Positions 4,301-64,000 of a DNA stretch of 64,000 nucleotides are shown here, piece by piece. The notes below the pieces were generated by a model. The model did not search any database. It saw only the letters and a list, made by a program, of their open reading frames with translations, and was not told the DNA's origin. The DNA comes from Candidatus Kaiserbacteria bacterium (GTDB taxonomy: Bacteria > Patescibacteriota > Minisyncoccia > Phycocordibacterales > Phycocordibacteraceae), in assembly GCA_016182485.1 (NCBI GenBank), contig JACPGH010000006.1, positions 90,461 through 154,460 of the forward strand, in the 5' to 3' direction. Both the position numbers and the translations under genes were made by a program. How positions within the stretch are numbered: position 1 is the first letter of the stretch; every line of letters begins with the position of its first letter.

Positions 4301-7078
4301 TTAATGGTTTACTCTTCCCACAACCGAGAGCGCCCGCACGAGCGCGAGCTTGGCGCCCGTCACGCCGGAGGCGTAACTCGAGTCGATGGCAGTTGTGAGC
4401 GAGGAGATAAGATTCTCAAGGATGGGAGTCGGGAATTGCTGCGCCCTGCGCGCGATGTCAGGATCGCAAGGGGTGCCGTCGATGCGCGCGCGATATGCGT
4501 CGTCTAATAGACAGGCGATCGACGTGAGCAAGTCCTCCGGCGCGCCGCCACCGCGCATATGCTGGCGAAGGCCCGAGAAGACCGCTTCCCTATCGCCTTC
4601 TAGAAGCGAGAGCGCGAAGCCTTTGAGAGATGCGGGGGCCGGGGCCGCGGGAGATGGCTCGGCCGCTTGCATGAGGGGCTCGACGCGCGGCTCCGGAGCA
4701 GGCTCCGCGTACGGGTCGCGCGTAAGGCCCTTGACGATATCCTCTACCGTGAGGGCTCCGTCATTCGCGAACGATTTGAAGCCCTCGTAGGAGGAATATC
4801 CGCGGGAGGTCTCTGGCGTCTCCCTCGACGTAGAGATCGCGGCGGGAGCTGGAGCGGCGGTGGCGGTGGCGGTGGCGGTGGCGGGAACGACGAGTGGTCC
4901 GGGAGTGGTCATGATCATCTCTTTAACACGCTGAATGAATTCCCGCATCTGGCGGTTCACGAACGGGGCGACGTGGAATAGCATCAGATACGCCGCCACG
5001 AGAGCCCAGCCGATGACCGCTAGCCAATACAGTGTTGTTCCCAGAGGGCCGAGATCGAGACCGGTGAAGGGGATCTGCGAGAGAAAGACGAAAGCCAAGG
5101 GCTGCTCTGCCGCCCGCGGAAGCGCGGAAACTACGACAGTCGGCGGCGGCGCAACCGGGGCGCTGGGCGCTCCTGCGCCTCCGCCTGGTTGGGAGAGACC
5201 GACCGCCGCAAAGCATGTGGCCGTCCGGCCGGATGCGTCTCTCGCGGTGCCGGTAAAGGTCGTGCCAGTCGTAATGGGTGGCGTGGTAGTCGAGCCGCTC
5301 TCCACCGGAAACACCGGGCCGATACCCCGGTCGATGGCAAATGCGACCGCGCTTACTGTCGTCCAGAAGAGCCTGGACGTCCCTCCGACATTCACCGTGT
5401 CCGGAGAAGCGGAGAGCGTGCACGCTAGTGCCGGTATAACGACTACGACTGCGGAGCAAGTCACCGAGCCGCCCCTGCCGGTTGCCGTTCCAGTAAATGT
5501 CGTAGTGGCCGTGGGAGAAACGGAAAGCGAGCCGGCCGCGACCGGCGTAACCGAGCCTATTCCGTTGTCGAGGACGAAAGACGTCGCTTCTGTCGACGTC
5601 CAGGAGAGCGTAGAGGAAAGACCTCTTTGAATAGTCGCCGGGGCCGCCGTGAGCGTACAGGTAGGCACCGGGGGAGGCACGACCGATATGGCGGCGGAAC
5701 AATTCACCGAACCGCCCGGACCGGTCGCTGTTCCCGTAAACGTGACGTTGACCGTCGGAGAAACGGAAAGCGAGCCGGCCGCGACCGGCGTTACCGAGCC
5801 GATCCCGTTGTCGATGACGAACGACGTGGCATTTGTCGTTGCCCAAGAAAGGGTTGCCGAGGTCCCCGTCTCGATTGTTGTTGGAGCCGCCGTAAGCGTA
5901 CAGGTAGGCGCCGGCGGAGGAGGGGGCGGCGGCGGCGGAGGCGGGGGTGGAGGAGGAGGGGGCGGCGGCGGAGGGGCGCCTCCATCCGCTTGTACTCCAG
6001 GACCAGCGGGTCCTACGCCTGCGTCTCCGCCGACGCCGCCGGCGTCCCCAGCATCTCCGCCGACACCGCCGGCGTCTCCCGCGTCTCCACCTGCGCCGCC
6101 ACCGTCACCTCCGTCGCCTCCCGCACCTCCACCATCGCCCCCATCCCCGCCGGCACCACCGCCGTCACCGCCGTCACCTCCCGCACCACCGCCGTCGGTT
6201 CCGTAATATCTGATTTGAAATTGAATATGTTCTTTGTCGTCAGCGCCAACATGGCCCAATGGGATCGAGAATGTGTACACCTTATGCTGCCAGGAAACTT
6301 TGTCCGTATACGTGAAGGCGCTCTCCCCCCACGCGGTCTCGCTTCCGTTTATCATGAACGTCTTTACGCCACTATCCGTGACGATGCCGATCTCTGCCCA
6401 ATCTCCTCCCTCGCCGATATCGAGCGTATTGTCGGATGTCCAGTCGAGCGTAATATAGAGATTCTTCTTGTCCGCGCTCACGTGCGCATATCTCACGGCG
6501 AACGGATGGCTAGAGACCGGGATCTCGGCGAAGGTATAAGTACGAGTATCGCCTATGGCGTAATCGAGGAATCCGTTCCTCGGCCATCGATAGGGCTCTC
6601 CTTTAAAATCTTCGGCTACGCCAGTGATCGTGAACGACGCTCCTTTGGCCTTCCATGCGAATTCCAGGCTGCGGTCGCGCGCTTCTATGACGTCATAATC
6701 CGCGCGCGCAAGCTTCTGTATCTGCACGCGGTCCCCCGTCGAGTCTCTCGCGGAAGCGGGAGCCAGTCCGTTCAACGCTACCGTGTCTAGATGCGCCGAC
6801 TGCGTCCCTCCGTTGTGCGTTATCCGTATACGGTCGCTTGACTCTCGCAGCGTGAAAGTTCTCGTAGCGTATCGATCCGGATGCGGGCGACCTGGAAAAG
6901 ATTCGCTTGCCACGAATTCCCAAGAGCCGTTCACGTATGCCTCGATAGTAAATGAATCTGAATCCGCCTGCGCGCTCGGCGTTTGGAAAAGAGAATCGCC
7001 GGATAGCGTAAAACTGCCTCCGAGCGCAAGAAGCATAACTATAACCATTCCTGTTGTATAAATATGCGTCCAGCGCAT
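4301..7078 (-). CDS. Large cell-surface protein: signal peptide, three tandem Ig-like ~70-aa repeats, poly-Pro and Gly-Asp linkers, an IPFTG motif, a single TM helix and a 230-aa cytoplasmic C-terminal domain
   Basis: 925-aa ORF. The signal peptide is MRWTHIYTTGMVIVMLLALGGSFTLSG...AQA. A run of more than 20 prolines is encoded by a GGN tract on the + strand (about 5900-5990), with (GGDGG)n repeats. Three repeats resemble CTLTAAPxTIxxGxSxTLSWxxTxATSFVxDNGIGSVTPVAAGSLSVSPT, matching a ~210-bp DNA tandem repeat at about 5380-5900. The motif LSQIPFTG is followed by the hydrophobic segment LGTTLYWLAVIGWALVAAYLMLF and then NRQMRE. Confidence 0.7.
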   Translation of the reverse strand: MRWTHIYTTGMVIVMLLALGGSFTLSGDSLFQTPSAQADSDSFTIEAYVNGSWEFVASESFPGRPHPDRYATRTFTLRESSDRIRITHNGGTQSAHLDTVALNGLAPASARDSTGDRVQIQKLARADYDVIEARDRSLEFAWKAKGASFTITGVAEDFKGEPYRWPRNGFLDYAIGDTRTYTFAEIPVSSHPFAVRYAHVSADKKNLYITLDWTSDNTLDIGEGGDWAEIGIVTDSGVKTFMINGSETAWGESAFTYTDKVSWQHKVYTFSIPLGHVGADDKEHIQFQIRYYGTDGGGAGGDGGDGGGAGGDGGDGGGAGGDGGDGGGAGGDAGDAGGVGGDAGDAGGVGGDAGVGPAGPGVQADGGAPPPPPPPPPPPPPPPPPPPPPAPTCTLTAAPTTIETGTSATLSWATTNATSFVIDNGIGSVTPVAAGSLSVSPTVNVTFTGTATGPGGSVNCSAAISVVPPPVPTCTLTAAPATIQRGLSSTLSWTSTEATSFVLDNGIGSVTPVAAGSLSVSPTATTTFTGTATGRGGSVTCSAVVVVIPALACTLSASPDTVNVGGTSRLFWTTVSAVAFAIDRGIGPVFPVESGSTTTPPITTGTTFTGTARDASGRTATCFAAVGLSQPGGGAGAPSAPVAPPPTVVVSALPRAAEQPLAFVFLSQIPFTGLDLGPLGTTLYWLAVIGWALVAAYLMLFHVAPFVNRQMREFIQRVKEMIMTTPGPLVVPATATATATAAPAPAAISTSRETPETSRGYSSYEGFKSFANDGALTVEDIVKGLTRDPYAEPAPEPRVEPLMQAAEPSPAAPAPASLKGFALSLLEGDREAVFSGLRQHMRGGGAPEDLLTSIACLLDDAYRARIDGTPCDPDIARRAQQFPTPILENLISSLTTAIDSSYASGVTGAKLALVRALSVVGRVNH

Positions 7079-15046: not shown

Positions 15047-15146
15047 CCCTTATTTTAAATATAGTATAGTGTGGAAAGGTGGCTAGCTCTGTTCACATAT
15101 AGGACCGCCGCTCGACGGGAATCGGGCACAACGCAAGGAGGCCGCC

Positions 15147-15905
15147 ATGCGGCAGATCGCTATCGCTCTCTCTCTGCTGTGCCTCGTTTCCCTCTCGGCT
15201 CCGCCGGCGAACGCCGAGGAGACGCCTGTGCTCTCGTACTCCTTCGCCACCGAGTGGTGGGCGAAGTACCTGAACCAGGGCGGGTTCGTCATCCATGACG
15301 GTTCGGTGCTCTGGACCAGCCTGTTCGTCACGCACAACCGGAGCGGCTTCTACGCTGGTCTCTGGAACTCGACGCCAATCGACGGGACGGAGTTCAATTC
15401 CGACTTCGGCACCGAGAACGACATCTACCTCGGTTGGCGCGGGCGCACCGGCAACTTCGGCTACACCCTCGGCGTCGCGTACTTCGACCTGTACCGACTC
15501 GGCGGTGACCCTGCTGGGGATCTCATGCAGGCGTACGGCGAAGTGGCCTACCACTTCCCGTTCGGGAAGCACGAGCTCGTACCCTTCGCACGCCTCGAAT
15601 ACTCGATACCGCCGCCCGTGCGGCATACGATGCTCGATGAGAGCGTCCGCGGCCTCGTCGGCGTCCGGTACACGTACGTGTTGACCGAGCAAGTTGGCTT
15701 CTGGGCGAAGCTGTGGCTCATCGGCGATGATGGCCGGAACGCGCCCGAGGCGACCGGCATCGCGCAGCTGGACGGCGGCGTGAAGGTCGTGCTGACGCAG
15801 AACGTCAACATGACCTTCGGGGCAAGGCTGTCGCAGCCGATGACGAAGACGAGTTCGCGCAAGTTCGAGGCGGTGCCGAACGCCGCGCTCAACATCAACT
15901 GGTAG
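15147..15905 (+). CDS. Secreted beta-rich protein, possibly a beta-barrel (C-terminal aromatic residue)
   Basis: Signal peptide MRQIAIALSLLCLVSLSAPPANA. Alternating aromatic and hydrophobic residues, ending in ...NINW. Confidence 0.5.
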   Translation: MRQIAIALSLLCLVSLSAPPANAEETPVLSYSFATEWWAKYLNQGGFVIHDGSVLWTSLFVTHNRSGFYAGLWNSTPIDGTEFNSDFGTENDIYLGWRGRTGNFGYTLGVAYFDLYRLGGDPAGDLMQAYGEVAYHFPFGKHELVPFARLEYSIPPPVRHTMLDESVRGLVGVRYTYVLTEQVGFWAKLWLIGDDGRNAPEATGIAQLDGGVKVVLTQNVNMTFGARLSQPMTKTSSRKFEAVPNAALNINW

Positions 15906-17805: not shown

Positions 17806-18627
17806 TTAAGAGCCGCAGAGGGCGCGGAGGGCGGAGAGGTCGGCGGCGGTCGGCACGAGATTCCCGCTCTCGTTCTCGGCGTACATGATGGCGTTCGCAT
17901 CCTCGTTGTGACCGAGGCCGATGGCGTGCCCGAACTCGTGCGCGAGCACCCGCTTAAGCTGCGTGGCGCCGATAAACTCGAAAATGTTTATTCGCACGCC
18001 CCTCGCGTCGCTCACGTATTCTCCTTCGCGGAACGTCTGTCCCGCGAATTGATTGTATTCCGCGACTTTCGCATTAATTACTCGCACGCGGGCATTATAT
18101 TCAGCGACTTTGGCGTTTATGGTATCCGAAAGCGCCGAGAGCGCCGCCTGCTTCGCCTTGAGCGCGGCGGCTTCCTGCTTCTTGGCGCCGCCGCCTGCCT
18201 TGCCGACAGGCAGGCGCGCATTTACCGCCGCAACTTCTCTGACATAGGCCGCCTGCTCGATTTCGTAACGAGCGCGCAGAGTGTCGAGTGCGGCGCGCGC
18301 CGCATCGATCTCCTCCTGTTCCCGCGCGATCTGACTGCCGAGCTTAGCGGTCGCCTCGCGCTCGTCATAAATGAGATTGATCTTGAGCGATGCCTGCGGC
18401 TCATACGCAAGGACAGTCTTGCCGGCTGCGTCGTTCCATATCGCCGCGGATGCTCTCGCGTTCTCTACAAGCGCGGCATTCGATATCTCGAAACGCTTAT
18501 CGATCGCGCCCAAAGCGAATCCTACAGGATGCCTGCATGGGCGCGTGTTCTGATATTCGTAGTATATGACCCCGGTCGACAGGACGAGGGCAACGAGAAG
18601 TATGAGCCAGCGAGAAGCGTCTTTCAT
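17806..18627 (-). CDS. Membrane-anchored zinc metalloprotease (metzincin/matrixin-like)
   Basis: HEFGHAIGLGH (HExxHxxGxxH) plus the Met-turn AIMY. N-terminal TM helix. Internal repeat INAKVAEYNARVRVINAKVAEYNQ. Confidence 0.75.
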   Translation of the reverse strand: MKDASRWLILLVALVLSTGVIYYEYQNTRPCRHPVGFALGAIDKRFEISNAALVENARASAAIWNDAAGKTVLAYEPQASLKINLIYDEREATAKLGSQIAREQEEIDAARAALDTLRARYEIEQAAYVREVAAVNARLPVGKAGGGAKKQEAAALKAKQAALSALSDTINAKVAEYNARVRVINAKVAEYNQFAGQTFREGEYVSDARGVRINIFEFIGATQLKRVLAHEFGHAIGLGHNEDANAIMYAENESGNLVPTAADLSALRALCGS

Positions 18628-19679
18628 TCTTTATATAACTCGAGCACGGCCAGCTCGAGCGGGAGCGCAGGAATAGGCGCATATCGGATGCGCTCTCCTG
18701 CCTCGAGAAATGCCCGTAGCGTCTTATGCGTGATGTGGGAAGTGCTACTTACCACATCATTGCCGGAGATTTTTTCGAGCGCTGCGAATTCGTCCGCCCC
18801 GAGCTCGCTCGCGAGCTCGGGGCGGAGCTCGGGCGCATAGCGGATGAGAAGCACCGAGCGCAATCCTTCGAGCACAAGCTCCAGATAAAGGCGCATATCT
18901 ATGCCGGCTCTGGCCGCTTTTTCTATCGTCTCAAGCGCGCGGCCTTGGCCCCCAGCGGGCGGCGCCTTTGCGAGCGCGGAAAGAAGCGCATGCACCTGCT
19001 CTCGGCGCGGCGCGGCTGTGACTGCTTCTACCGATTCCCGCGAAATAATTTTTCCTGGAGCCGCGACGAGAACCTTCTGCAACACCGAAAGCGCGTCGCG
19101 ATACGAGCCCTCGGCGAGAATGGCGACGAGCTCGGCCGCGGCCGCCTCGAGGGCAACCCCCTCCTTCTTGGCGACCGCGATTGCAGTCTTCGCGAGCACT
19201 GCTCTAGTAGGCTTCTTGAACTCGAACACCTGACAGCGCGATTGCACGGTTTCCGGCACTTTTTCGATTTCGGTTGTTGCAAGTATGAAAACAGCGTGCG
19301 CCGGGGGTTCCTCCAGCGTCTTCAAGAAAGCATTCCAGGCGCCCTTCGAGAGCATGTGCACTTCGTCGAGAATGTACACCTTATAGGACGACTCGAACGG
19401 CAACGTGTACACGCCCTCGGTGAGCGCGCGGATATCTTCTACGCTGTTGTGGCTTGCCGCGTCTATTTCATGCAGATCACGCTCGCTCGTGCCAATCGCG
19501 GCGGCGAAGATGCGCGCTACCGAAGTTTTCCCCAAGCCGCGGCTTCCGGCAAAAAGATAGGCGTGGCCGATCTTTTTTGCTTTGACCGCTTCAGATAACG
19601 GCTTCGTCACCTGTTCTTGCCCTATGACTTCTTCAAATGTCGCCGGCCGATACGTGCGATAGAGAGCCTGATGCGCCAT
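18624..19679 (-). CDS. dnaX: DNA polymerase III subunit gamma/tau (short form)
   Basis: N-terminus YRPATFEEVIGQE, Walker A GSRGLGKTS, and the AAA+ clamp-loader sensor motifs. It is only 351 aa. Confidence 0.8.
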   Translation of the reverse strand: MAHQALYRTYRPATFEEVIGQEQVTKPLSEAVKAKKIGHAYLFAGSRGLGKTSVARIFAAAIGTSERDLHEIDAASHNSVEDIRALTEGVYTLPFESSYKVYILDEVHMLSKGAWNAFLKTLEEPPAHAVFILATTEIEKVPETVQSRCQVFEFKKPTRAVLAKTAIAVAKKEGVALEAAAAELVAILAEGSYRDALSVLQKVLVAAPGKIISRESVEAVTAAPRREQVHALLSALAKAPPAGGQGRALETIEKAARAGIDMRLYLELVLEGLRSVLLIRYAPELRPELASELGADEFAALEKISGNDVVSSTSHITHKTLRAFLEAGERIRYAPIPALPLELAVLELYKE

Positions 19680-19726
19680 TCAATTAGTATAGAGGCGCTA
19701 GGCGCTAGGCGCTAGGCATAAAAAAC

Positions 19727-19765
19727 ATCGCGGCCGGGTCCTCTACCCGGCCGCTTGAGTCGCCC
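19727..19765 (-). terminator. Intrinsic terminator (GCGGCCGGGU...ACCCGGCCGC stem followed by a U6 tract on the minus strand)
   Basis: The + strand reads TAAAAAACATCGCGGCCGGGTCCTCTACCCGGCCGC, which on the minus strand gives a stem followed by GAUGUUUUUUA. It lies 27 nt downstream of the 19792..20487 gene. Confidence 0.65.
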
Positions 19766-19791
19766 GACTACGTACGAATACTCCGATTCGC

Positions 19792-20487
19792 TCAGCACTT
19801 CTTCCGCAGCACTCGTTTCGGCGTCTTGCCGGCCGGTTGAGGGAACATTTTACGGGCCTTGGCTCGCATCTGAGCCCTCAGTGCCTCGATTGAGGCAAGC
19901 ACGCGAGCGATCTCGTCGTTGAGAAGCTCCTGTTCTGTCCGGAGCTCCTCATATTCTCTCTGATGGTATGGAGGGATGTACCGTTCATCGCTTTCGGCAT
20001 CGTACTCTTCTAGTGCATTGCACGCGTCGTCAATGTCAGACTGCAGTTCTTTCAGTCCAGCGAGCACTCCCTGACGAGCGGAGACGATACAGCCGAGGTT
20101 ACCGAACTGGAGCGGCCGTTTTTTGCGCCGCTTTGCCCGCGGCGCAGGCCTCCCGACCTTGACCCATGTTCCTAGCGAGAACTGCTCGTACCCGCCCCCG
20201 ACGACAACCGGGTAGAGCCAGCCGGTCGTCTTCTGCCACTCTAGCTTCGACAGGCCGCAGGCGGACTGGAACTTCTTACCCGCTTCTTCCACTGTCCGCA
20301 CGTCGAGCCGGATCATCTCGACACGGCTCTCCTTCGGTTGGAAAAACTGCAGAATGCAGCGGTAGAGCAGATATCCGACTGTGGCCCCGCTGCACTTCCG
20401 TCTGGCGAGTTCGACGAGGGCTATGAACGAAGCACCCGCCTCGTCCTGTCCAGCAGCGTATTGAAGCTTCCGCGCATAGAGTGCCAT
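19792..20487 (-). CDS. Hypothetical protein with a basic patch and PLQFGNL motif (paralogous segment shared with the 20594 gene)
   Basis: 231 aa, containing KRRKKRPLQFGNLGCIV. The DNA segment GTTACCGAACTGGAG parallels GTTCCCGAACTGAAG in the next gene. Confidence 0.5.
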   Translation of the reverse strand: MALYARKLQYAAGQDEAGASFIALVELARRKCSGATVGYLLYRCILQFFQPKESRVEMIRLDVRTVEEAGKKFQSACGLSKLEWQKTTGWLYPVVVGGGYEQFSLGTWVKVGRPAPRAKRRKKRPLQFGNLGCIVSARQGVLAGLKELQSDIDDACNALEEYDAESDERYIPPYHQREYEELRTEQELLNDEIARVLASIEALRAQMRAKARKMFPQPAGKTPKRVLRKKC

Positions 20488-20593
20488 GCGGCTCTCCTTT
20501 CTTTCTTGGGTGCTGTCCGAAGCTCATAGTACCATTTCGCTAGCTATAGCAGTGGCGGCCGGTCCCGAGATTCGGGACCGGCCGCGCGAACGG

Positions 20594-20857
20594 TCACGCT
20601 GGAGGCGTGAGCCGAAATGGCTTGCGGGCCTGCGCACAAAGCCCGCCGTTGCGGAAGCACGTCTCGCACCTGATTCTCTGGACCTCCGCCATTTCGGAGT
20701 CCACCTCCGCGTCCGTATACGCGAAGGCTTGGTTAAGCGCCGCCAGACGTACTAGCTGAATGTGCACAAGGTTCCCGAACTGAAGAGGCGTCGGGATGTT
20801 CCGCCGTGCGGATTTCCGCAAGCGAAGAAGCGCAGTTCCCATCTTCGGACAGGTCAT
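20594..20857 (-). CDS. Small Cys-containing hypothetical protein with a PLQFGNL motif
   Basis: The ORF runs to 20917 (TTG). The internal ATG at 20855-20857 has the SD-like sequence AAAGGGGG upstream. It contains RRNIPTPLQFGNLVHIQL. It is followed by the hairpin GCGGCCGGTCCCGAGATTCGGGACCGGCCGC (about 20550-20580). Confidence 0.4.
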   Translation of the reverse strand: MTCPKMGTALLRLRKSARRNIPTPLQFGNLVHIQLVRLAALNQAFAYTDAEVDSEMAEVQRIRCETCFRNGGLCAQARKPFRLTPPA

Positions 20858-20973
20858 CGGGCCCCCTTTCGAACGATCGTCTGTCCAGAGTCTATCTGTG
20901 AACAAAAGTATTGGCAATTTCGCATATAAACATCGCGGCCGGGTGGCATGCCACCCGGCCGCTGCTCGTCGCC

Positions 20974-21639
20974 CTACCAGTCCCCGTCTCCGAGGAGGCC
21001 ATCAGCCCTTCTGTAATTCGCTTCGTAGCCGAAGCAGTGACGGGACTCCGCAAGGCGCTCTCCGACAATCATGAGCTCGGTGTACGGGATGGTGTCGTGT
21101 CCGAGGCCATCGCCGTGTATGTCGAACACCATGTTGTCGTGCGTGCCCGCGACGAGCAGGTCGCCGCGCGCGAACTGTGCGTCCAGGTTCTCGAGGCCGC
21201 GACGCAACACCCCCTTGAACTCCTTCTCATACCACACCCGCACCTTGTCCAGGACCATGTCCCGGGAGGCCGGCGAGAGCCCTTGGATGATGCGGGCCGT
21301 CTGTCGCGGCGAGAGCCGCACGACGTTGTCCGGCAAGCTGCACTTGTCGCAGTAGACGACGAAGCGCACGTTGAGCCAGAGGCGAACGTAGTCCGTGCTC
21401 AGAAGTTCGCTCAGACGAATCTCCGTGTTCGCCCGGCTGCCAATGTCGGTGATCCGCCTGATGACTTCGACACCGAATCGGCCGTTCAGACAGGCGTGCG
21501 GGCGATAGCATGGTTCCTCGGCTCTCTCGAGCGCGGCGATTCCGCGGTTCAGCTCCCGCCTGACTGCAGAATCCTCGCCGAGCTTCACCAGCGTCCAGTT
21601 GTCCATGATGTTCCTCCCGAGTTTCGAATCTTTGAACAA
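20974..21639 (-). CDS. Hypothetical protein (Cys-x5-C...CxxC, with an HD-rich GTHDNMVFDIHGDGLGHD segment)
   Basis: 221 aa with a diverse composition. It is preferred over the overlapping + strand ORF 20911..21660, which is Ala/Arg/Val-rich and typical of antisense. It is followed by the terminator-like hairpin GCGGCCGGGTGGCATGCCACCCGGCCGC at 20931-20962. Confidence 0.5.
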   Translation of the reverse strand: MFKDSKLGRNIMDNWTLVKLGEDSAVRRELNRGIAALERAEEPCYRPHACLNGRFGVEVIRRITDIGSRANTEIRLSELLSTDYVRLWLNVRFVVYCDKCSLPDNVVRLSPRQTARIIQGLSPASRDMVLDKVRVWYEKEFKGVLRRGLENLDAQFARGDLLVAGTHDNMVFDIHGDGLGHDTIPYTELMIVGERLAESRHCFGYEANYRRADGLLGDGDW

Positions 21640-21654
21640 ACTTCCGAGCGTACA

Positions 21655-22710
21655 CTATAATTTAACTCGTAAAGCGTCAATCGCCGCAATCAGTTCATCG
21701 GCGCACACGCTTCGCATCAAAGTTGCTCGCATGTCAGCGGCGCCGTCGAAACCGGAGACGAACGCTTTGATGTGCTTCTTTAGGACGTCGAAATGCTTCG
21801 GCGGTGAAAGACTTTCAAAGCCGTGCGCAAGCTCGCCAAGCGCCCGTAATTTCTCCTCGAGCCTATGTTCGGACATCGCATGTCCAACTTCACGGGAGGA
21901 CATCCGATGTCCTGCAATGCCTTCAAATAGCCACGGATTACCGAACAGCGCGCGGCCGAGCATGACGCCGTCACAGCCGGACTCCTCCGCCTTCATTCGC
22001 GCGTCCTCCAGTCCGCGCACGTCGCCGTTGCCGATGAGGAGCACGCGCGGATTCACCCGGTTGCGGATCGAGACGGCTTTTTTCATCAGTTCCCAGTCAG
22101 CCGGCGCTTTTGACATCTGTTTGCGCGTGCGCAGATGAAGCGTGATCGCCGCAGGTTCCGCTTCGAGCAGGACCGGCAGCCATTCATCGAGCGACTCCTT
22201 GCTATACCCCACGCGCGTTTTCACCGAAACCGGCATCCGTACCAATTTCGTCCTATAGGCTGGATTTGGTACGGAAGCTCGCCAGGCTTCTTGCGCCGCG
22301 CGAATAAGCGCGGCGGCATGTTTCGGATTTTTTATGAGCGCGGCTCCGGCTTCTTGTTTCTCGATAGATTTGTCCGGGCAGCCCATGTTGAGATCCACGC
22401 CGTCGAATCCGAGCTCCGCTACAAGTTTTGTCGCATAGGCGATCATTTCCGGCTTGCTCGAAAATATCTGCGCGACGATCGGATGCTCTTCGGCAGAAAA
22501 CTGCAGGTCGCGTATGAGAGGATTCTCAGCATCCGGGATTCTCTGCACTTCGCCCGTGTGATACAAGCCGTCCGCCGAAACGAATTCGGTCCATATGACG
22601 TCCGGCTTGCCGTAACGAACGAGCAGCCCCCGAAAGGCCGCGTCCGTCACATCCGCCATCGGCGCGGAAGCGAAAAACGGCCTCGGCAGCTTGTTCCAAA
22701 ACGATTCCAT
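21655..22710 (-). CDS. tRNA-dihydrouridine synthase (Dus family)
   Basis: The N-terminus (FFASAPMADVTDAAFRGL) and PVSVKTRVGY match the Dus FMN TIM-barrel. The C-terminal segment resembles a helical Dus domain. Confidence 0.85.
   Translation of the reverse strand: MESFWNKLPRPFFASAPMADVTDAAFRGLLVRYGKPDVIWTEFVSADGLYHTGEVQRIPDAENPLIRDLQFSAEEHPIVAQIFSSKPEMIAYATKLVAELGFDGVDLNMGCPDKSIEKQEAGAALIKNPKHAAALIRAAQEAWRASVPNPAYRTKLVRMPVSVKTRVGYSKESLDEWLPVLLEAEPAAITLHLRTRKQMSKAPADWELMKKAVSIRNRVNPRVLLIGNGDVRGLEDARMKAEESGCDGVMLGRALFGNPWLFEGIAGHRMSSREVGHAMSEHRLEEKLRALGELAHGFESLSPPKHFDVLKKHIKAFVSGFDGAADMRATLMRSVCADELIAAIDALRVKL
22237..22274. repeat. 38-nt imperfect palindrome inside the dus CDS (encodes VPNPAYRTKLVR); near-identical to an intergenic copy at 32864-32905
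   Basis: The sequence is CCGTACCAATTTCGTCCTATAGGCTGGATTTGGTACGG. The copy at 32864-32905 matches it at about 34 of 38 positions. Confidence 0.6.
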
Positions 22711-22741: not shown

Positions 22742-23563
22742 CTAGCGCCTCTTCAAATACACCTTTCCGTTAAAGCGCAAATCTACGTATTCGAAAGATC
22801 CGTCTGCGAGGTTCACGTTCGGACTCGCTGAAACGAGCTCCGTGTACGCATTCTGCTCCTGGCCGAATAGATACGTGACGCGAGTGCCGCTCGCGAGCAT
22901 GTCATCCACCTCATCATCGCGTATGTGTATGTAGGTCACCGGTGAACCCAACGTTCCCAACCGGCGCGCGAAATCGAAAGTGCCGGGCAACTTCTCGGCA
23001 AGAAGGACCGTCGCTCGCAGCGGGAGAGCTGGACTGCCTTCAAGAGGCGCGTATACAGTGAAATCCTGTACCGTCTGCGTAGTGGTCGCATACGGCGCAT
23101 ACAGGTAACCGTTCGCGTCAAAGATGTAGCACTGTTCCTCCGCAAGCGGAGACAGCCCGCACCAACGCGCTATCGGGACTCTCTCAGAGATCGTGACTGA
23201 CAGGCTCGTCAAGCTGCGAGAAATCGAGACGGCGGCTATATCGGGACGCGCCGCCATAACGCGCGCGCGTACGCGAGACGCGGAGAAGAAAAAAGCGGAA
23301 TCCCGGGGAATAATGCCCGCATAATACCCGTCAAGCGCGGCGCGTACGATGGATTCTGTCGAAGGATCGGCGGTCTCGATGCGGGAGATGCGGACCGCAC
23401 TTTGCCGCAAGCCCGTTATGATCACGAGCGAAGCGAGAAGGAGGAAAATGCCGAAGGCGGCGAGGACCCGGCGGCGCCCTCGGCGCCGCCGGGCCGCGAG
23501 ACTCTGCCTCCCGCCCTGGCCGGGCAAGCTATCCCGCTCCCCCGATGACGGCCTTGCCAACAT
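22742..23563 (-). CDS. Cell-division FtsQ/DivIB-like protein (POTRA domain)
   Basis: Arg-rich cytoplasmic N-terminus, one TM helix and an extracytoplasmic POTRA-like region (VRISRIETADPSTESIVRAAL...). It overlaps serS by 35 nt. Confidence 0.5.
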   Translation of the reverse strand: MLARPSSGERDSLPGQGGRQSLAARRRRGRRRVLAAFGIFLLLASLVIITGLRQSAVRISRIETADPSTESIVRAALDGYYAGIIPRDSAFFFSASRVRARVMAARPDIAAVSISRSLTSLSVTISERVPIARWCGLSPLAEEQCYIFDANGYLYAPYATTTQTVQDFTVYAPLEGSPALPLRATVLLAEKLPGTFDFARRLGTLGSPVTYIHIRDDEVDDMLASGTRVTYLFGQEQNAYTELVSASPNVNLADGSFEYVDLRFNGKVYLKRR

Positions 23564-24842
23564 ACGGGACCAATGCTTCCGGCACTTTCACCGTACCATC
23601 CGCCTGCTGATAATTCTCTACGATAGCTATCAGTGTCCGCCCGATCGCGAATGCGGTCGCGTCATTCATATGCACATGTGTAAGATCTCCACTCTTGCTC
23701 CGAACGCGCGTATTGAGCCTCCGCGCCTGATAGCCGCCCATGTAATCAGATGTCTGAGTTTCTCGGTAGGTATCCTGACCCGGCATCCAGGTTTCAATAT
23801 CGAACTGCCGCTGATCCGGTTTCCCCATGTCGCCGGTACAGATCGCTACGACTTGGTACGGCAATTTAAGCGATTGCATGAGGTGTTCTTGAATCGCAAC
23901 GAAAAAATCTTGTTCTTGATATCCGTTTTCCGGCCGAGAGAAGCTTTCGAGTTCGAGCTTATCGAATTGGTGTTGTCTAAGAATACCGCGCGTGTCCTTG
24001 CCCGCCGCGCCTGCCTCCCGCCGAAAGGCCGTTGAATACCCAACATACCTGATCGGCAAAGACTCGTCCCCAAGGATCTCATTCATGTGGAGTGGTCCCA
24101 AGGTGTGCTCTGCGCTGCCGACAAGCACGAGGTCGTCTTTTTCAAAGAAGTACCGCTCTTCGATCGGTTGCAGACGTGCCATGCGGCCCATAACATCGCT
24201 CCGCATGAGGACGGGCGGAATGATCGGAATGAACGGCGTTGCCGCCACGGGGAGATTGGCTTTCTGTGCGATCCCAGCAAGCTCTTCGCGCGACGTAAGA
24301 ACTTTAAGCGCGAAAGCTATTAGCCCGAACTGCATGAGAACTGCATCTCCTTTAAGATATGAGAAACGTGCGCCAGACACTGCTGCCGCCCGTTCCGTAT
24401 CTATTATGTCCAATTCTCTGCCGATGTCCCAATGCGCTTTGGGCTTGAAATCGAAAGTCGGCCGCTCGCCCCATTTTCGCACAACCACATTGCCCGATTC
24501 ATCCGGACCTACCGGCGTATCGGGCGAAGGAATGTTTGGAACGGAAAGAAGCAATTTGGTCCATCTTTGCAACAATTCCTGATACCGCCCTTCAGCCTCG
24601 GTCATTCCGATTTTCAAATGCTGCATTGCTTCGATCACCTTCTCTCGCTCGAAACCCTTAAAAGTCTGGATTTCTTGGCTTCTTCGGTTCTGTTCGGCCC
24701 GCTTGGCGTCTAATTCTTGGCGTATCTTTTTACGCTCATCGTCCAATTTCAAAAGTTCGTCAAGGTCCACATCAACCCCTTTCTTCGCGGCGGCGTCTTT
24801 CACTACTTCCAGATTCTCCCGTATGAAATGTATGTCGAGCAT
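23529..24842 (-). CDS. serS: Seryl-tRNA synthetase
   Basis: N-terminal coiled-coil region (MLDIHFIRENLEVVKDAAAKKGVDVDLDELLKLDDERK), followed by the class II aaRS core motifs. Confidence 0.9.
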   Translation of the reverse strand: MLDIHFIRENLEVVKDAAAKKGVDVDLDELLKLDDERKKIRQELDAKRAEQNRRSQEIQTFKGFEREKVIEAMQHLKIGMTEAEGRYQELLQRWTKLLLSVPNIPSPDTPVGPDESGNVVVRKWGERPTFDFKPKAHWDIGRELDIIDTERAAAVSGARFSYLKGDAVLMQFGLIAFALKVLTSREELAGIAQKANLPVAATPFIPIIPPVLMRSDVMGRMARLQPIEERYFFEKDDLVLVGSAEHTLGPLHMNEILGDESLPIRYVGYSTAFRREAGAAGKDTRGILRQHQFDKLELESFSRPENGYQEQDFFVAIQEHLMQSLKLPYQVVAICTGDMGKPDQRQFDIETWMPGQDTYRETQTSDYMGGYQARRLNTRVRSKSGDLTHVHMNDATAFAIGRTLIAIVENYQQADGTVKVPEALVPYVGKAVIGGAG

Positions 24843-26556: not shown

Positions 26557-26674
26557 TTTGTGATTTCGGAAGTTTATGGTATCATTGTAGTAGGTGGCTA
26601 CTGGGGCGTGAGATTGTCTTACGCACTGGAAATAGCCTGATCTTTTGGTCGCCTCGTACAGGGGGAATAAGACG

Positions 26675-27415
26675 ATGGCACGTACCATCCTCGAACGCGC
26701 ACCGATCCGCATCCCCGACACGCCGGAACTGCTCGGCCAGGAAATGTTCGCGCTTGCGAAGGAAGCGCACTCGGTGCTCGGCTACGCTGGCCTCATGACG
26801 GCCGACGGCGTCGTGCAGACGCTCCGACGCCAGTGTCTCGCCACGGCCGCCGAGGCGCTCGAGTCGCTCGGCATCGAGCCGTTCACAATCGAGTCCGTCG
26901 AGGCCTACAAGAAGGAAGAGCGCGAGCGCGTCATCGCCGAGGAGATCGCCAAGATCGATCCCGGGGTCCTGCGACGTCGCGCGAGGGCCGGGCACATCGC
27001 CCTCTCCGGCTGCGTCGCCGCTGCACTCGGCAGTTTCAGTCTGTTGCTGTTCGGCAACACGATCTCAGTCGGATTCCTCGTCGGCGGGATCGTGACGGCT
27101 GCGTGTTCCGGCTGGTTCTGGACCGTGTTCGGCTTTAACTACGCCGTGGCTGTCGCGCGGGCGGAGAGCTGGAGCTGGGTCAGCCGTCCGATAGACATGT
27201 ACAACAACCCGCAGGTTCCGACGGCAGCCGTGCGGACGGCCATCGCGCTCAAGAAGCTCCTGCCAGAGTGCGTGGTCGAGATCGAAAGCCTCGAACACAT
27301 GATGAACCGCGCCGGCGACCCGTTCCTGCGCATCGGCTTTCCAATGCCGGTCGAAGACAAGCTCTACATCCACATCGTTTGGGGCGAGCCGAACTACTCG
27401 GCGAAGTTCGAGTAA
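26675..27415 (+). CDS. Hypothetical membrane protein (2 TM helices)
   Basis: The start is taken at MARTILERAP, which has GGGGGAATAAGACG upstream. Two hydrophobic helices lie in the middle. It is followed by a terminator. Confidence 0.5.
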   Translation: MARTILERAPIRIPDTPELLGQEMFALAKEAHSVLGYAGLMTADGVVQTLRRQCLATAAEALESLGIEPFTIESVEAYKKEERERVIAEEIAKIDPGVLRRRARAGHIALSGCVAAALGSFSLLLFGNTISVGFLVGGIVTAACSGWFWTVFGFNYAVAVARAESWSWVSRPIDMYNNPQVPTAAVRTAIALKKLLPECVVEIESLEHMMNRAGDPFLRIGFPMPVEDKLYIHIVWGEPNYSAKFE

Positions 27416-29980: not shown

Positions 29981-30005
29981 GACCGCCGGTGTATAGTATC
30001 TGTCT

Positions 30006-31586
30006 ATGACTACCGTCAAAGAAATCCTTGACGCGATGTCAAACCCTTCCGACGAGGACAAGGCGCTCGTCGAGAAGGCGTACGAATATTCTAAAAAGGC
30101 GCACGACGGGCAGGAGCGCTACTCCGGCGAGCCGTATTTTATCCACCCCGCAGGCGCGGCCAAGGCGCTCGCCGAATACGACATGGACGCCGTCTCCATA
30201 GCGGCGGGACTCCTCCATGACGCGGTAGAGGACGGACGAGCCACGCGGGAGGATATCGAGAAGGAGTTCGGGAAGGAGGTGCTCTTCATCGTCGACGGAG
30301 TCACCAAGCTCGGCAAGCACCGCTATCACGGAGCCGAGCGGCACGCGGAGAGCCTGCGGCGGCTCCTAGTCGCCACGGCAAGCGACATTCGAGTGCTTAT
30401 CGTGAAGCTCGCTGATCGCTACCACAATATGCGCACCCTGGACCACGTGCCGGAGCCGAAGCGCAGACGCATCGCGCTCGAAACGCTCGAGATATACGCG
30501 CCGATCGCGGACCGCCTCGGCATGGGAAAGATGCGAAGCGGCTTGGAAGACCTCGCTTTCCCCTACGTCGACCCGGACGCCGCGCACCACACCGCCGAAC
30601 TGCGCAAGCTGAAGACGAAGGAAACTGAGGTGAGTCTCACCAATGTGCAAAAGGAGCTGAAGCACGAGCTAGCCAAAAAAGGGATTACGACGTTCCGAAG
30701 CGATATCCGCATGAAGGGCCTCTGGAGCCTGCACAAGAAGCTGAGGCGCAAGCAGGATGACATCAACCAGATCCACGACATCGCCGCGCTGCGTATTATC
30801 GTCCCATCGATCGAGGACTGCTATTCGACCCTGGGCATCGTGCATTCTCTCTACCGGCCCTTGCCTGGCGAATTCAAGGATTACATCGCGTTCCCGAAGC
30901 CGAACGGCTACCAATCGCTGCACACCACGGTAGTAACGCATGACGCGGGAATTGTAGAGATACAGATCCGTTCCGAGGCGATGCATCGCGAAGCGGAATT
31001 CGGCATTGCGTCGCACATGTCCTACAAACAGCTCGGTAAGGGCGTGGAGAAGCTCGACAAGCAGGCCCAAAAAAGCATGTTCTCCGCCCTCTCTTTGTCA
31101 TGGATACGCTCATTCATCCCCTCTCTGATGAAAGTTTCGAAAAAGGAGGGAGGCGAGACGCACGGGCCCGTGAAGATCCCGAACTGGCTCGAAGAGCTCG
31201 CCGCGGCGCACAACGAGGTGGCTAACTCCAAGGAATTCGTGGAGGGTCTTAAGGAGGACTTCTTCTCGCATCGCGTGTTCGTCTTCACTCCGAAGGGCGA
31301 CGTGATAGACCTGCCGGTCGCCTCAACGCCGATCGATTTCGCCTACGCGATACACAGCGACCTCGGCAACCATCTCTCGGGCGCGAAGGTGAACGGCAAG
31401 CTCGTTTCCTTCGAAAGCACGCTCGGCAACGGAGATGTCGTAGAGATTATCCGGAAAGATTCCGCGCGGCCGACCAAAAAATGGCTCGAGATCGCCCGCA
31501 CATCGCTCGCGCGCCGCCATATCCGCACCGCTCTCGGCATGGGAGAAAACGAAAAATCTCCCTCCCGCAAGAATTTCAAAAAATAA
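30006..31586 (+). CDS. Bifunctional (p)ppGpp synthetase/hydrolase Rel/SpoT homologue (short, no ACT domain)
   Basis: HD domain (HPAGAAKAL...LLHDAVED), then a synthetase domain (ALRIIVPSIEDCYSTLGIVHSLYRPLPGEFKDYIAFPKPNGYQSLHTTV), then a TGS domain (VFVFTPKGDVIDLP). Confidence 0.85.
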   Translation: MTTVKEILDAMSNPSDEDKALVEKAYEYSKKAHDGQERYSGEPYFIHPAGAAKALAEYDMDAVSIAAGLLHDAVEDGRATREDIEKEFGKEVLFIVDGVTKLGKHRYHGAERHAESLRRLLVATASDIRVLIVKLADRYHNMRTLDHVPEPKRRRIALETLEIYAPIADRLGMGKMRSGLEDLAFPYVDPDAAHHTAELRKLKTKETEVSLTNVQKELKHELAKKGITTFRSDIRMKGLWSLHKKLRRKQDDINQIHDIAALRIIVPSIEDCYSTLGIVHSLYRPLPGEFKDYIAFPKPNGYQSLHTTVVTHDAGIVEIQIRSEAMHREAEFGIASHMSYKQLGKGVEKLDKQAQKSMFSALSLSWIRSFIPSLMKVSKKEGGETHGPVKIPNWLEELAAAHNEVANSKEFVEGLKEDFFSHRVFVFTPKGDVIDLPVASTPIDFAYAIHSDLGNHLSGAKVNGKLVSFESTLGNGDVVEIIRKDSARPTKKWLEIARTSLARRHIRTALGMGENEKSPSRKNFKK

Positions 31587-63382: not shown

Positions 63383-63460
63383 TCTTTATATTGTATCAAA
63401 ACGAAACGTTCGCGACTTGCCTACAAACAGAGGACGCCGACCGGAAGACCGGTCGGCGCG

Positions 63461-64000
63461 TTACCACCCCATCTTGTCAAGCCCTGCAACTGCGGCTTTC
63501 TGCTCGGCTTCCTGCTTGCTCGCCCCCTCTCCGCGCGCGACTTCCTCGCGTCCGACAAAGAGACCGACGGTGAAAAGCTTCGCGTGATCGGGGCCTTCTT
63601 CCGACAGGGTCTCGTAATTGGGCGTGACGCCGCGCTTATCCTGCGCCATTTCTTGAAAACGGCTCTTGGCGTCCTGGTAAGCGCGCGTCGTGATCACTTC
63701 GTCAATCTTCGGAAACAGGTTCTGCACGATAAAAGCTTCGGCCGCGGCATACCCTTGATCCAAATATATCGCTCCGATGACCGCCTCAAACGCGTCTGCG
63801 AGGATGACGTCGCGCGCGCGCCCCGTATCCCGCGCTTCTCCCTTGGAGAGCAGGAGGCACTCGTTCAAGTCGAGCGCCCGGGCGCTCTCCGCGAGCGAAG
63901 ACGTATTTACGAGCGCAGCGCGGTAGCTCGTAAGCTCGCCTTCCGGCTTCGCCGGGAATTTCTTGAATAGAAAATCCGTGGCCGCGAGCTCGAGGACGGC
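63461..64000 (-). CDS. rnc: Ribonuclease III (partial; N-terminus beyond the window edge)
   Basis: Catalytic signature (...LELAATDFLFKKFPAKPEGELTSYRAALVNTSSLA...) and a C-terminal dsRBD (KDAKSRFQEMAQ...ASKQEAEQKAA). The frame stays open to position 64000. Confidence 0.8.
   Translation of the reverse strand, partial: AVLELAATDFLFKKFPAKPEGELTSYRAALVNTSSLAESARALDLNECLLLSKGEARDTGRARDVILADAFEAVIGAIYLDQGYAAAEAFIVQNLFPKIDEVITTRAYQDAKSRFQEMAQDKRGVTPNYETLSEEGPDHAKLFTVGLFVGREEVARGEGASKQEAEQKAAVAGLDKMGW

Follow-up and report, generated by a model that had tools for sequence, protein, structure and literature searches.

Our goal was to understand how three small genes of no described family, each followed by a similar hairpin, came to lie in tandem in the genome of a Candidatus Kaiserbacteria bacterium (Candidate Phyla Radiation, CPR; Parcubacteria). 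The window, meaning the whole stretch of DNA that we analysed, is 64 kb long. On its minus strand, the gene order is serS, a gene for a hypothetical protein, dus, the trio g1, g2 and g3, dnaX, and a gene for an M10-like peptidase. An earlier note on this DNA, written by a model from the sequence alone, proposed a cassette-like array or a recently duplicated unit. Here, we argue that the trio is likely to be a lineage-specific tandem expansion of one expression unit, comprising a gene and its own terminator. Ordinary duplication and decay, rather than mobile cassettes, would account for it. Note that g3 belongs to a protein family, named LQFGN, that we define by profiles A2 and A3. The features of the trio are as follows.

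21607-21654, minus strand: spacer between dus and g1, which is the g1 leader; it has UUUGUUCAAAGAU at 21628-21640 and the Shine-Dalgarno (SD) sequence GGGAGGA, and no hairpin
20974-21606, minus strand: g1 (HYV30_03640), 210 amino acids, an ORFan unrelated to the LQFGN family
20922-20974, minus strand: T1, predicted terminator module, with its hairpin at 20935-20962
20594-20857, minus strand: g2, 87 amino acids, apparent truncated paralog of the LQFGN family
20769-20789, minus strand: DNA encoding PLQFGNL in g2, a 21-nucleotide match to g3
20555-20585, minus strand: T2, hairpin after g2, without a U-tract
19792-20487, minus strand: g3, 231 amino acids, identical to NCBI HYV30_03635, intact ortholog of the LQFGN family
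20096-20116, minus strand: DNA encoding PLQFGNL in g3, a 21-nucleotide match to g2
19716-19765, minus strand: T3, predicted terminator module, with its hairpin at 19730-19754

The repeated unit

Could the arrangement result from misassembly? The trio region is 100% identical in six independent assemblies, from different sequencing runs. Hence, the arrangement is real and not an assembly artefact. 

The pattern GCGGCCGG-N(4-30)-CCGGCCGC occurs exactly three times in the window, once after each gene of the trio. Shuffled sequences contain 0.01 copies on average, and none of 100 shuffles reached three. A looser pattern, GCGGCCG…CGGCCGC, finds the same three sites. All three stem-loops are stable and GC-rich, lie 3' of the stop codon and are on the coding strand. 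Segments of around 60 nucleotides, taken around each, have minimum free energies of -30 to -39 kcal/mol. The T1 hairpin is a perfect 28-nucleotide palindrome, GCGGCCGGGTGGCATGCCACCCGGCCGC, with the tail GAUGUUUAUAUG. The T3 hairpin is GCGGCCGGGUagaggACCCGGCCGC, with the tail GAUGUUUUUUAUG. Both have U-rich tails (GAUGUUUAUAU for T1 and GAUGUUUUUU for T3) and both were called by a terminator scan. The T2 hairpin, GCGGCCGGTCCCGaatcuCGGGACCGGCCGC, has a stem of 13-14 base pairs, is followed by CACUGCUAUAGC rather than a U-tract, and was not called.

The earlier note had described three same-strand genes each followed by such a hairpin, and this we confirm. Its mention of U-tracts holds for T1 and T3; the lack of one at T2 had gone unflagged. 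The note also reported an identical 17-mer, AAACATCGCGGCCGGGT, ahead of two hairpins. We find two occurrences of this sequence, which belong to a longer similarity between T1 and T3, of 54 nucleotides (80% identical), which starts with GGGCGAC ahead of the stem and extends past the U-run to ATGC. Since the similarity reaches beyond the stem on both sides, T1 and T3 are a copied module and did not arise by convergence. The end of g1 coincides with the start of this copy of the T3 module. Furthermore, the stem of T1 has a match in the related locus L002, in the terminator that follows its g3 ortholog. Leaders are repeated too. The 13-mer in the g1 leader recurs upstream of g2, at 20894-20906, and leaders of the g1 type resemble those of family genes in two related loci, L001 and L108, where we read them directly. 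Each repeat is thus a module of leader, coding sequence and hairpin, much as the note had suggested, with g2 and g3 as apparent paralogs and a terminator module after g1 that is a copy of the one after g3.

How closely are g2 and g3 related? The note had drawn attention to a PLQFGNL similarity between the two proteins. This is genuine and is a signature of the family; in BLASTP, g2 and g3 align over 51 residues with E 9e-4. Alignment using hhalign pairs g2 with the full-length family (89%, E 2e-6, 19 columns around the motif) and with a profile of short-form relatives (90.5%, E 1.4e-6, 23 columns around the motif). g2 retains the R-rich-PLQFGNLVHIQLVR segment, and a tail resembling AQxRKxxRxxPPA, and lacks the N-domain and the coiled-coil tip. 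At the DNA level, similarity to g3 is limited to 21 nucleotides at 86% identity (20769-20789 versus 20096-20116), and around 23-30 residues are alignable. Hence, the duplication is old or heavily decayed. Recent duplication, as proposed in the earlier note, therefore fits the 54-nucleotide T1/T3 module and not the g2/g3 pair. A protein database search with g2 returned only g2 itself. Judged from these alignments, g2 appears to be an old, truncated paralog of g3, and it may be decaying. The g2 start is the ATG after AAAGGGGG; a 107-amino-acid version, extended to a TTG, would enter the promoter/terminator region. g2 is not in the NCBI annotation of this genome and is present only in Logan gene calls.

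The LQFGN family and its inheritance

g3 has seven homologs at 38-50% identity (E 1e-55 to 3e-35). Searching 1.84 billion cluster representatives with the family profile, at E<=1e-3, identified 112 representatives that include full-length, N-only and C-only forms. Those with a named source belong to Kaiserbacteria or Zambryskibacteria, and every one carries the annotation 'hypothetical protein'. No Pfam or NCBIfam model matched g3 or the family members scanned, no PHROG or PADLOC model matched g3, and literature searches found nothing on the family. We conclude that the LQFGN family is restricted to Parcubacteria and was previously undescribed. The earlier note's view that the three proteins have no assignable function stands, with none of the three matching a described family.

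The family signature is W-x-(K/R)-V-G-x-P, a run of R/K residues, then L-(Q/K/R)-(F/V/I)-G-(N/E/D)-(L/I)-x-H-(I/L). These motif columns are conserved across the whole family. g3 has every part expected of a full-length member: an N-domain with WxKTTxWL and GxWVKVGxP, a basic linker, L(Q/K)(F/V/I)G(N/E/D)(L/I)xH(I/L), and a coiled-coil hairpin. Its parts, in residue numbers, are as follows.

1-111: N-terminal beta-meander domain
117-124: basic linker, RAKRRKKR
125-130: PLQFGN
131-214: coiled-coil hairpin, followed by a basic tail

An AF2 model of g3, made with 62 sequences, has a predicted local distance difference test score (pLDDT) of 92.3 and a predicted template modelling score (pTM) of 0.71. 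In the model, the N-domain consists of four long antiparallel strands plus helices. After the linker come the motif and a 29-residue helix (H131-159). A short beta-turn, in which (Y/F)(V/I)P(E/K) is conserved, forms the tip and leads into a return helix of 42 residues and the basic tail. The motif is positioned directly ahead of the first helix, and is not a free peptide. The conserved basic linker and tail (pI 9.5) flank the base of the coiled coil. By hhalign, short stand-alone forms of around 100 amino acids show homology along the entire C-module (99.7%, E 2e-25, 95 columns), and they lack the basic linker. Because C-only short forms and N-only forms exist, the protein has two separable domains.

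No match to the g3 model below E 0.01 was found by Foldseek in PDB or BFVD, and sequence-profile matches in PDB are generic antiparallel coiled coils (designed proteins, prefoldin and seryl-tRNA synthetase (SerRS) arms). Prefoldin beta, the SerRS N-terminal arm and other antiparallel coiled-coil hairpins do share a predicted layout with the C-module, in which a long helix, a beta-hairpin or turn, and a second long helix span around 85 residues, and stand-alone forms of around 100 amino acids. However, there is no significant match in sequence or structure, and the LQFGN cap, basic linker and beta-meander N-domain have no counterpart there. For prefoldin beta in particular, the likeness is of topology alone: the best Pfam Prefoldin_2 match has E 0.04, below the cutoff, and Foldseek gives 6nr8_4 (PFD4) at E 0.88 and TMq 0.31. 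A relationship to SMC/Rad50 proteins was rejected, with top Foldseek template modelling (TM) scores of 0.2-0.3, E>=0.01 and no Walker motif. A YbaB/EbfC-like identity, suggested by the pairing of GNL with a helix and the dnaX neighbourhood, was also rejected, because PF02575 gives no match even at E<=10.

What might the family protein do? The note had suggested that cysteine-containing proteins of this kind could bind nucleic acid. The cysteines of g3 and g2 do not bear this out. In g3 they fall in six columns, each with cysteine in at most 3 of 62 sequences, and those of g2 are absent from its short-form relatives. Neither protein thus has the conserved CxxC or Cx5C ligands of small zinc-binding proteins. 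Our best guess, held with low confidence and prompted by charge and architecture, is a coiled-coil adaptor whose basic surfaces would bind nucleic acid or a partner protein and that would oligomerise via the coiled coil. With equally low confidence, the short forms would then be stand-alone or partner subunits.

Comparison with related loci, here numbered L001 to L112, places the family gene in a fixed setting. The neighbouring genes in the window are as follows.

23529-24842, minus strand: serS, part of the upstream string
22742-23563, minus strand: hypothetical gene, 273 amino acids, between serS and dus
21655-22710, minus strand: dus, 351 amino acids, the upstream neighbour and last conserved gene of the serS-hypothetical-dus string
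18624-19679, minus strand: dnaX, 351 amino acids, the downstream neighbour, with Pfam domains

The family gene is found directly after dus at every locus recovered with flanking DNA, and dnaX is next wherever the contig reaches (L001, L002, L003, L098-L103 and L111). The order dus-X-dnaX, where X is a full-length family gene, is seen in L001, L003, L100, L101, L102 and L111. By tblastn, dus immediately precedes the family gene in L003, L098, L099 and L103. Even L111, with a profile E around 1e-21, keeps the dus-X-dnaX slot. In L002, an apparent translational coupling of the family gene to dnaX was rejected. The overlapping call is mis-started, and the conserved MAHQSLYR start is around 100 nucleotides downstream, after the terminator. 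We conclude that the g3 unit has been vertically inherited at a fixed position.

Copy number and form vary between relatives. The full-length gene is alone in L001, L003, L098-L103 and the distant L111, while a 98-amino-acid short form is alone in L105-L107. L104 has a full-length gene plus a short form. L108 has a full-length gene, a 100-amino-acid short form and a 48-amino-acid 'MALFARK' remnant, and is an independent example of array growth and decay. The third, decayed unit of L108 (4586-5078) consists of a 48-amino-acid open reading frame (ORF) with the family N-terminus MALFARK, around 300 nucleotides of non-coding DNA and another copy of the hairpin.

Two further observations concern the DNA upstream of the family gene. 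In L109, the spacer between dus and the family gene is 177 nucleotides long (4824-5000) and has its own GC-rich hairpin (CCCCGCUGCaaaGCAGGCGGGG); the spacer is 40-60 nucleotides in most relatives. The hypothetical gene between serS and dus, encoding around 270 amino acids, is also conserved in L001, L105, L108 and L109, and its start overlaps the end of serS. The protein is rich in arginine at the N-terminus, continues with a hydrophobic segment, and gave no match in a Pfam scan.

Conservation and probable role of the hairpins

If each hairpin is inherited with its gene, relatives should have it too. In Kaiserbacteria-type relatives, a version follows every family copy examined (16 copies). 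It is present after the family gene in L001, L002, L003, L098-L101, L103-L105 and L109, and L108 has it after each of its three copies. T3 is orthologous to those in L001, L002, L003, L098-L101, L103, L105 and L108. With Dus sharing only 57-66% identity between the genomes compared, neutral intergenic DNA should not align. Hence, the hairpin is under selection. Among the 16 copies, 96.3% of alignment cells are paired and double changes are present in 10 of 12 pairs. None of 500 shuffles reached this level, and control alignments slid out of register were 15-51% paired. The CGGCCG core of the stem is near-invariant (88-100% per column), and the inner pairs flip between GC and CG.

The hairpin is also specific to this locus. 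A covariance model, R1, built from these copies, gave only three strong hits in the window, scoring 45 bits for T1, 37.6 for T3 and 33.7 for T2. The next best, at 23 bits, is a generic terminator at 63423-63461. In 72 kb from relatives (11-12 kb from each of several), every match above 30 bits is directly after a copy of the family gene. Against Rfam, the hairpins gave one sub-threshold miRNA match only.

The simplest reading of these patterns is that the hairpin is an inherited intrinsic terminator, duplicated with its gene. Like Rho-independent terminators, the predicted structures have a GC-rich stem of 10-14 base pairs and a loop of 3-5 nucleotides, and lie 10-40 nucleotides after the stop codon on the strand of the gene. 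U-rich tails are present in T1, T3 and 15 of the 16 related copies, and compensatory changes maintain the stem. They differ in having a near-invariant core, and in that one hairpin lineage has stayed with every paralog, even across genomes as diverged as these. T2 also differs, in its lack of a U-tract, and is probably a weak terminator or a 3' stabiliser. A further difference is that the 5' arm overlaps the last codons in L104 and L108. In these two loci (852-900 and 4476-4517, respectively), the last residues and stop codon of the short-form genes (…ACG GCC GAC TAG) are encoded by the hairpin arm, so that coding sequence and terminator overlap.

Our preferred explanation runs as follows. The ancestral unit would have comprised a short SD leader, a gene of the LQFGN family and a GC-rich intrinsic terminator hairpin. 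In relatives, this single-copy unit would close the serS-hypothetical-dus string, with the terminator insulating the string from dnaX, which would have its own promoter. The genes from serS through dus to X would form one transcript ending at the hairpin, and dnaX would be transcribed separately. Repeated leaders and hairpins would offer homology for unequal crossing-over, able to create or remove copies, and arrays appear to have formed independently in other genomes. Of the three units here, g3 would be the intact ortholog and g2 a copy that has lost the N-domain and coiled-coil tip. g1 would be an unrelated, compositionally distinct coding sequence that entered, or replaced the gene of, a duplicated unit with a family-type leader and a copy of the g3 terminator module. 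Passed on with each gene copy and maintained through compensatory substitution, the hairpins would serve to end transcription without Rho, or to stabilise 3' ends, with T2 probably leaky for want of a U-tract. Tandem duplication and birth-and-death arrays are similar in having repeats of leader, coding sequence and terminator, with one copy intact, one truncated and one replaced, and in the independent array of L108. The g1 unit sets this locus apart, because its coding sequence is unrelated to the family and has a different codon composition.

Several points weigh against this explanation. Conservation of the stem core exceeds the need of a purely structural terminator, and leaves some room for an extra function in cis. 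The origin of g1 is not explained by tandem expansion; it could be horizontal acquisition, replacement of a family coding sequence, or de novo emergence. Termination at T1-T3, and the use of promoters, would follow from sequence features, and the search for hairpin copies in this genome covered the 64 kb window. Finally, charge and architecture are what suggest an adaptor or nucleic-acid-binding role, itself a guess of low confidence, and there is no basic linker in the short forms.

Among the alternatives, the most probable holds that the hairpin is more than a terminator and serves in cis as an RNA or DNA element that the family protein recognises specifically; the protein might, for instance, autoregulate by binding the 3' stem-loop in its own mRNA. 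We think this unlikely. Recognition would explain why the hairpin travels with every gene copy, be it full-length, short, remnant or g1, and why the CGGCCG core is invariant. Yet the genes of the most distant family members examined, in L102, L111 and L112, are followed by unrelated terminator hairpins. Hence, the family protein does not depend on this hairpin sequence. Conservation of the core columns while inner pairs covary is also as recognition would predict, but any intrinsic terminator needs GC pairing where the stem meets the U-tract. Similarly, such a role would suit the linker and tail, which are basic, conserved and flank the base of the coiled coil, whereas short forms have no basic linker. 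Retention of T2, despite its missing U-tract, is in favour. A related proposal is that the family protein and the 3' hairpin constitute a Parcubacteria-specific, co-inherited recognition pair, the target being either the stem-loop of its own mRNA or the corresponding DNA palindrome just upstream of the dnaX promoter. This seems to us quite unlikely. Through such a pair, the level of the protein would govern how far the unit, or dnaX, is expressed. By forming heteromers via the coiled coil, the short forms, among them g2, would modulate this, and g1 would be a gene captured into a regulated unit.

A different possibility, which we judge very unlikely, is that the family protein is a Parcubacteria accessory of its neighbours, acting with the DnaX clamp loader or the beta-clamp (LQFGNL being reminiscent of clamp-binding motifs) or with Dus and tRNA, and with g2 as a modulating mini-subunit. 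The gene does lie between dus and dnaX at every locus with both flanks, including L111, but such synteny may reflect vertical inheritance alone. There is apparent co-transcription with dus, with no hairpin between; conversely, X and dnaX are set apart by a strong predicted terminator and a separate predicted promoter. The motif departs from the consensus for binding to the beta-clamp (QL[SD]LF or QLxLxL). In 62 sequences, the Q column has Q in 26, K in 13 and R in 9, so that K or R stands in place of Q in 22; at position 4, where the consensus calls for a hydrophobic residue, the family has N, E or D. As for tRNA, the coiled-coil arm has basic ends, and the best PDB matches of the short-form profile are SerRS arms (E 0.014). 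However, hhalign against local SerRS arms gives less than 1%, and derivation of the C-module from the SerRS arm of the nearby serS was rejected on this basis.

What of mobile elements? Integron attC cassettes resemble the trio in having small ORFs that look promoter-less, an imperfect palindrome after each, and a single orientation. They differ in their ends, since those here are GCGGCCG…CGGCCGC and not attC cores (RYYYAAC…GTTRRRY), and no integrase was seen among the neighbours checked. They differ also in that each gene here has its own SD and apparently its own promoter, with U-tracts, a fixed chromosomal slot and vertical inheritance. Repetitive extragenic palindromes (REP), bacterial interspersed mosaic elements (BIME) and miniature inverted-repeat transposable elements (MITE) do not fit either, with all three copies at one locus of the window and the matches above 30 bits in relatives following family genes. 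The 17-mer had 88 matches in 185,579 GTDB representative genomes, which do not include this genome, against around 70 expected by our own estimate; none was in Kaiserbacteria and the single Paceibacterota match is not a hairpin. Hence, although T1 and T3 are imperfect direct repeats that bracket g2-T2-g3, T1 is a perfect palindrome, and g1 is compositionally foreign and without a homolog, a mobile or cassette array with hairpins as recombination sites (attC-like, REP/BIME or MITE, or targets of hairpin-seeking insertion sequences) is highly improbable, because no recombinase or transposase was found among ORFs read at 17-25 kb or, by Pfam scan, in eight neighbour proteins (the whole window was not scanned for integrases), the hairpin is confined to this locus, both in the window and in the 11-12 kb covered from each of several relatives, vertical inheritance has kept g3 and its hairpin in the same position, the hairpins lack attC R/L cores and have U-tracts in the direction of transcription, and the 17-mer is at chance level.

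The cassette-like array of the earlier note, in its mobile sense, is thus not upheld: orthologs of g3 are single-copy after dus, with an orthologous hairpin except in the most distant relatives, and the hairpin is tied to the locus rather than dispersed. The note had named two findings that would speak against it, namely syntenic single-copy orthologs with unrelated terminators, or a PLQFGNL similarity that disappears in alignments. The outcome is mixed: syntenic single-copy orthologs exist, but their terminators are related, and the similarity persists. If tandem expansion is correct, the apparent cassettes are the outcome of ordinary birth-and-death evolution, acting on a unit of gene plus terminator, and the main value of this result is interpretive. 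The undescribed Parcubacteria family between dus and dnaX, with its confident predicted structure and no PDB or BFVD match, may be of interest to those working on CPR bacteria. The well-conserved, covarying terminator is a possible natural test set for terminator evolution, or a hint of extra function in cis. Neither by-product touches a long-standing open question.

g1 and the predicted dnaX promoter region

The preferred start of g1 is the ATG at 21606, which is 6 nucleotides after GGGAGGA and gives a protein of 210 amino acids; independent gene calls agree. The alternative, used by NCBI and the earlier note, is a TTG at 21639 (221 amino acids), 33 nucleotides upstream of the SD-preceded ATG. 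The protein has a Cx5C…CxxC arrangement (C33, C39, C86 and C89) and a pI of 6.0. Among 5.8 billion proteins, only self-matches were found, and there was no match in Pfam, PHROG, NCBIfam, PDB, phage, plasmid or IMG/VR data. Nor did g1 match the LQFGN family: hhalign gave 0.2%, a six-frame hidden Markov model (HMM) search of g1 DNA was empty, and tblastn found nothing in any related locus.

Is g1 truly a gene? Its GC content at the three codon positions is 0.645/0.417/0.829. This profile looks coding and indicates a real gene in its own frame. For this reason, and given the hhalign and six-frame results, g1 was rejected as a diverged or frame-shifted family copy. A 249-amino-acid ORF on the opposite strand (20911-21660, plus strand) was rejected as the true gene, because it has the pattern of a shadow ORF (first-position GC 0.80), a TTG start inside T1, and no SD. 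A relationship to the Shedu protein SduA was also rejected; the match, of 13.7 bits and E 0.006, covers 50 residues outside the nuclease domain. It was the only match to anti-phage defence, phage or toxin-antitoxin models in PADLOC, PHROG, Pfam and NCBIfam.

Third-position GC (GC3) of g1 is around 2.5 standard deviations above the window mean (0.66±0.06). Other ORFs with high GC3, all on the plus strand, are 15087-15905 (0.86), 26636-27415 (0.84) and 29997-31586 (0.77). The first has a Gcw_chp match just over the Pfam cut-off and the second has no Pfam match. Together with g1, these ORFs may represent a group of genes that is distinct in composition and was possibly acquired.

Downstream of the trio, dnaX has its own TATACT box at 19686-19691, 6 nucleotides before the ATG, and no SD. 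TATACT is likewise 6-10 nucleotides before the dnaX ATG, with no SD, in ten related loci (including L001, L002, L003, L098-L101, L103 and L105). On this pattern, dnaX appears to be leaderless. Between T3 and the TATACT box, a perfect 7-nucleotide tandem repeat (TAGCGCC on the minus strand, 3.6 copies, 19693-19717) fills the dnaX -35 region. The repeat may be an operator or a product of slippage, and L103 has a degenerate version, GCCTAATGCCTAACGCCTA, in the same place.

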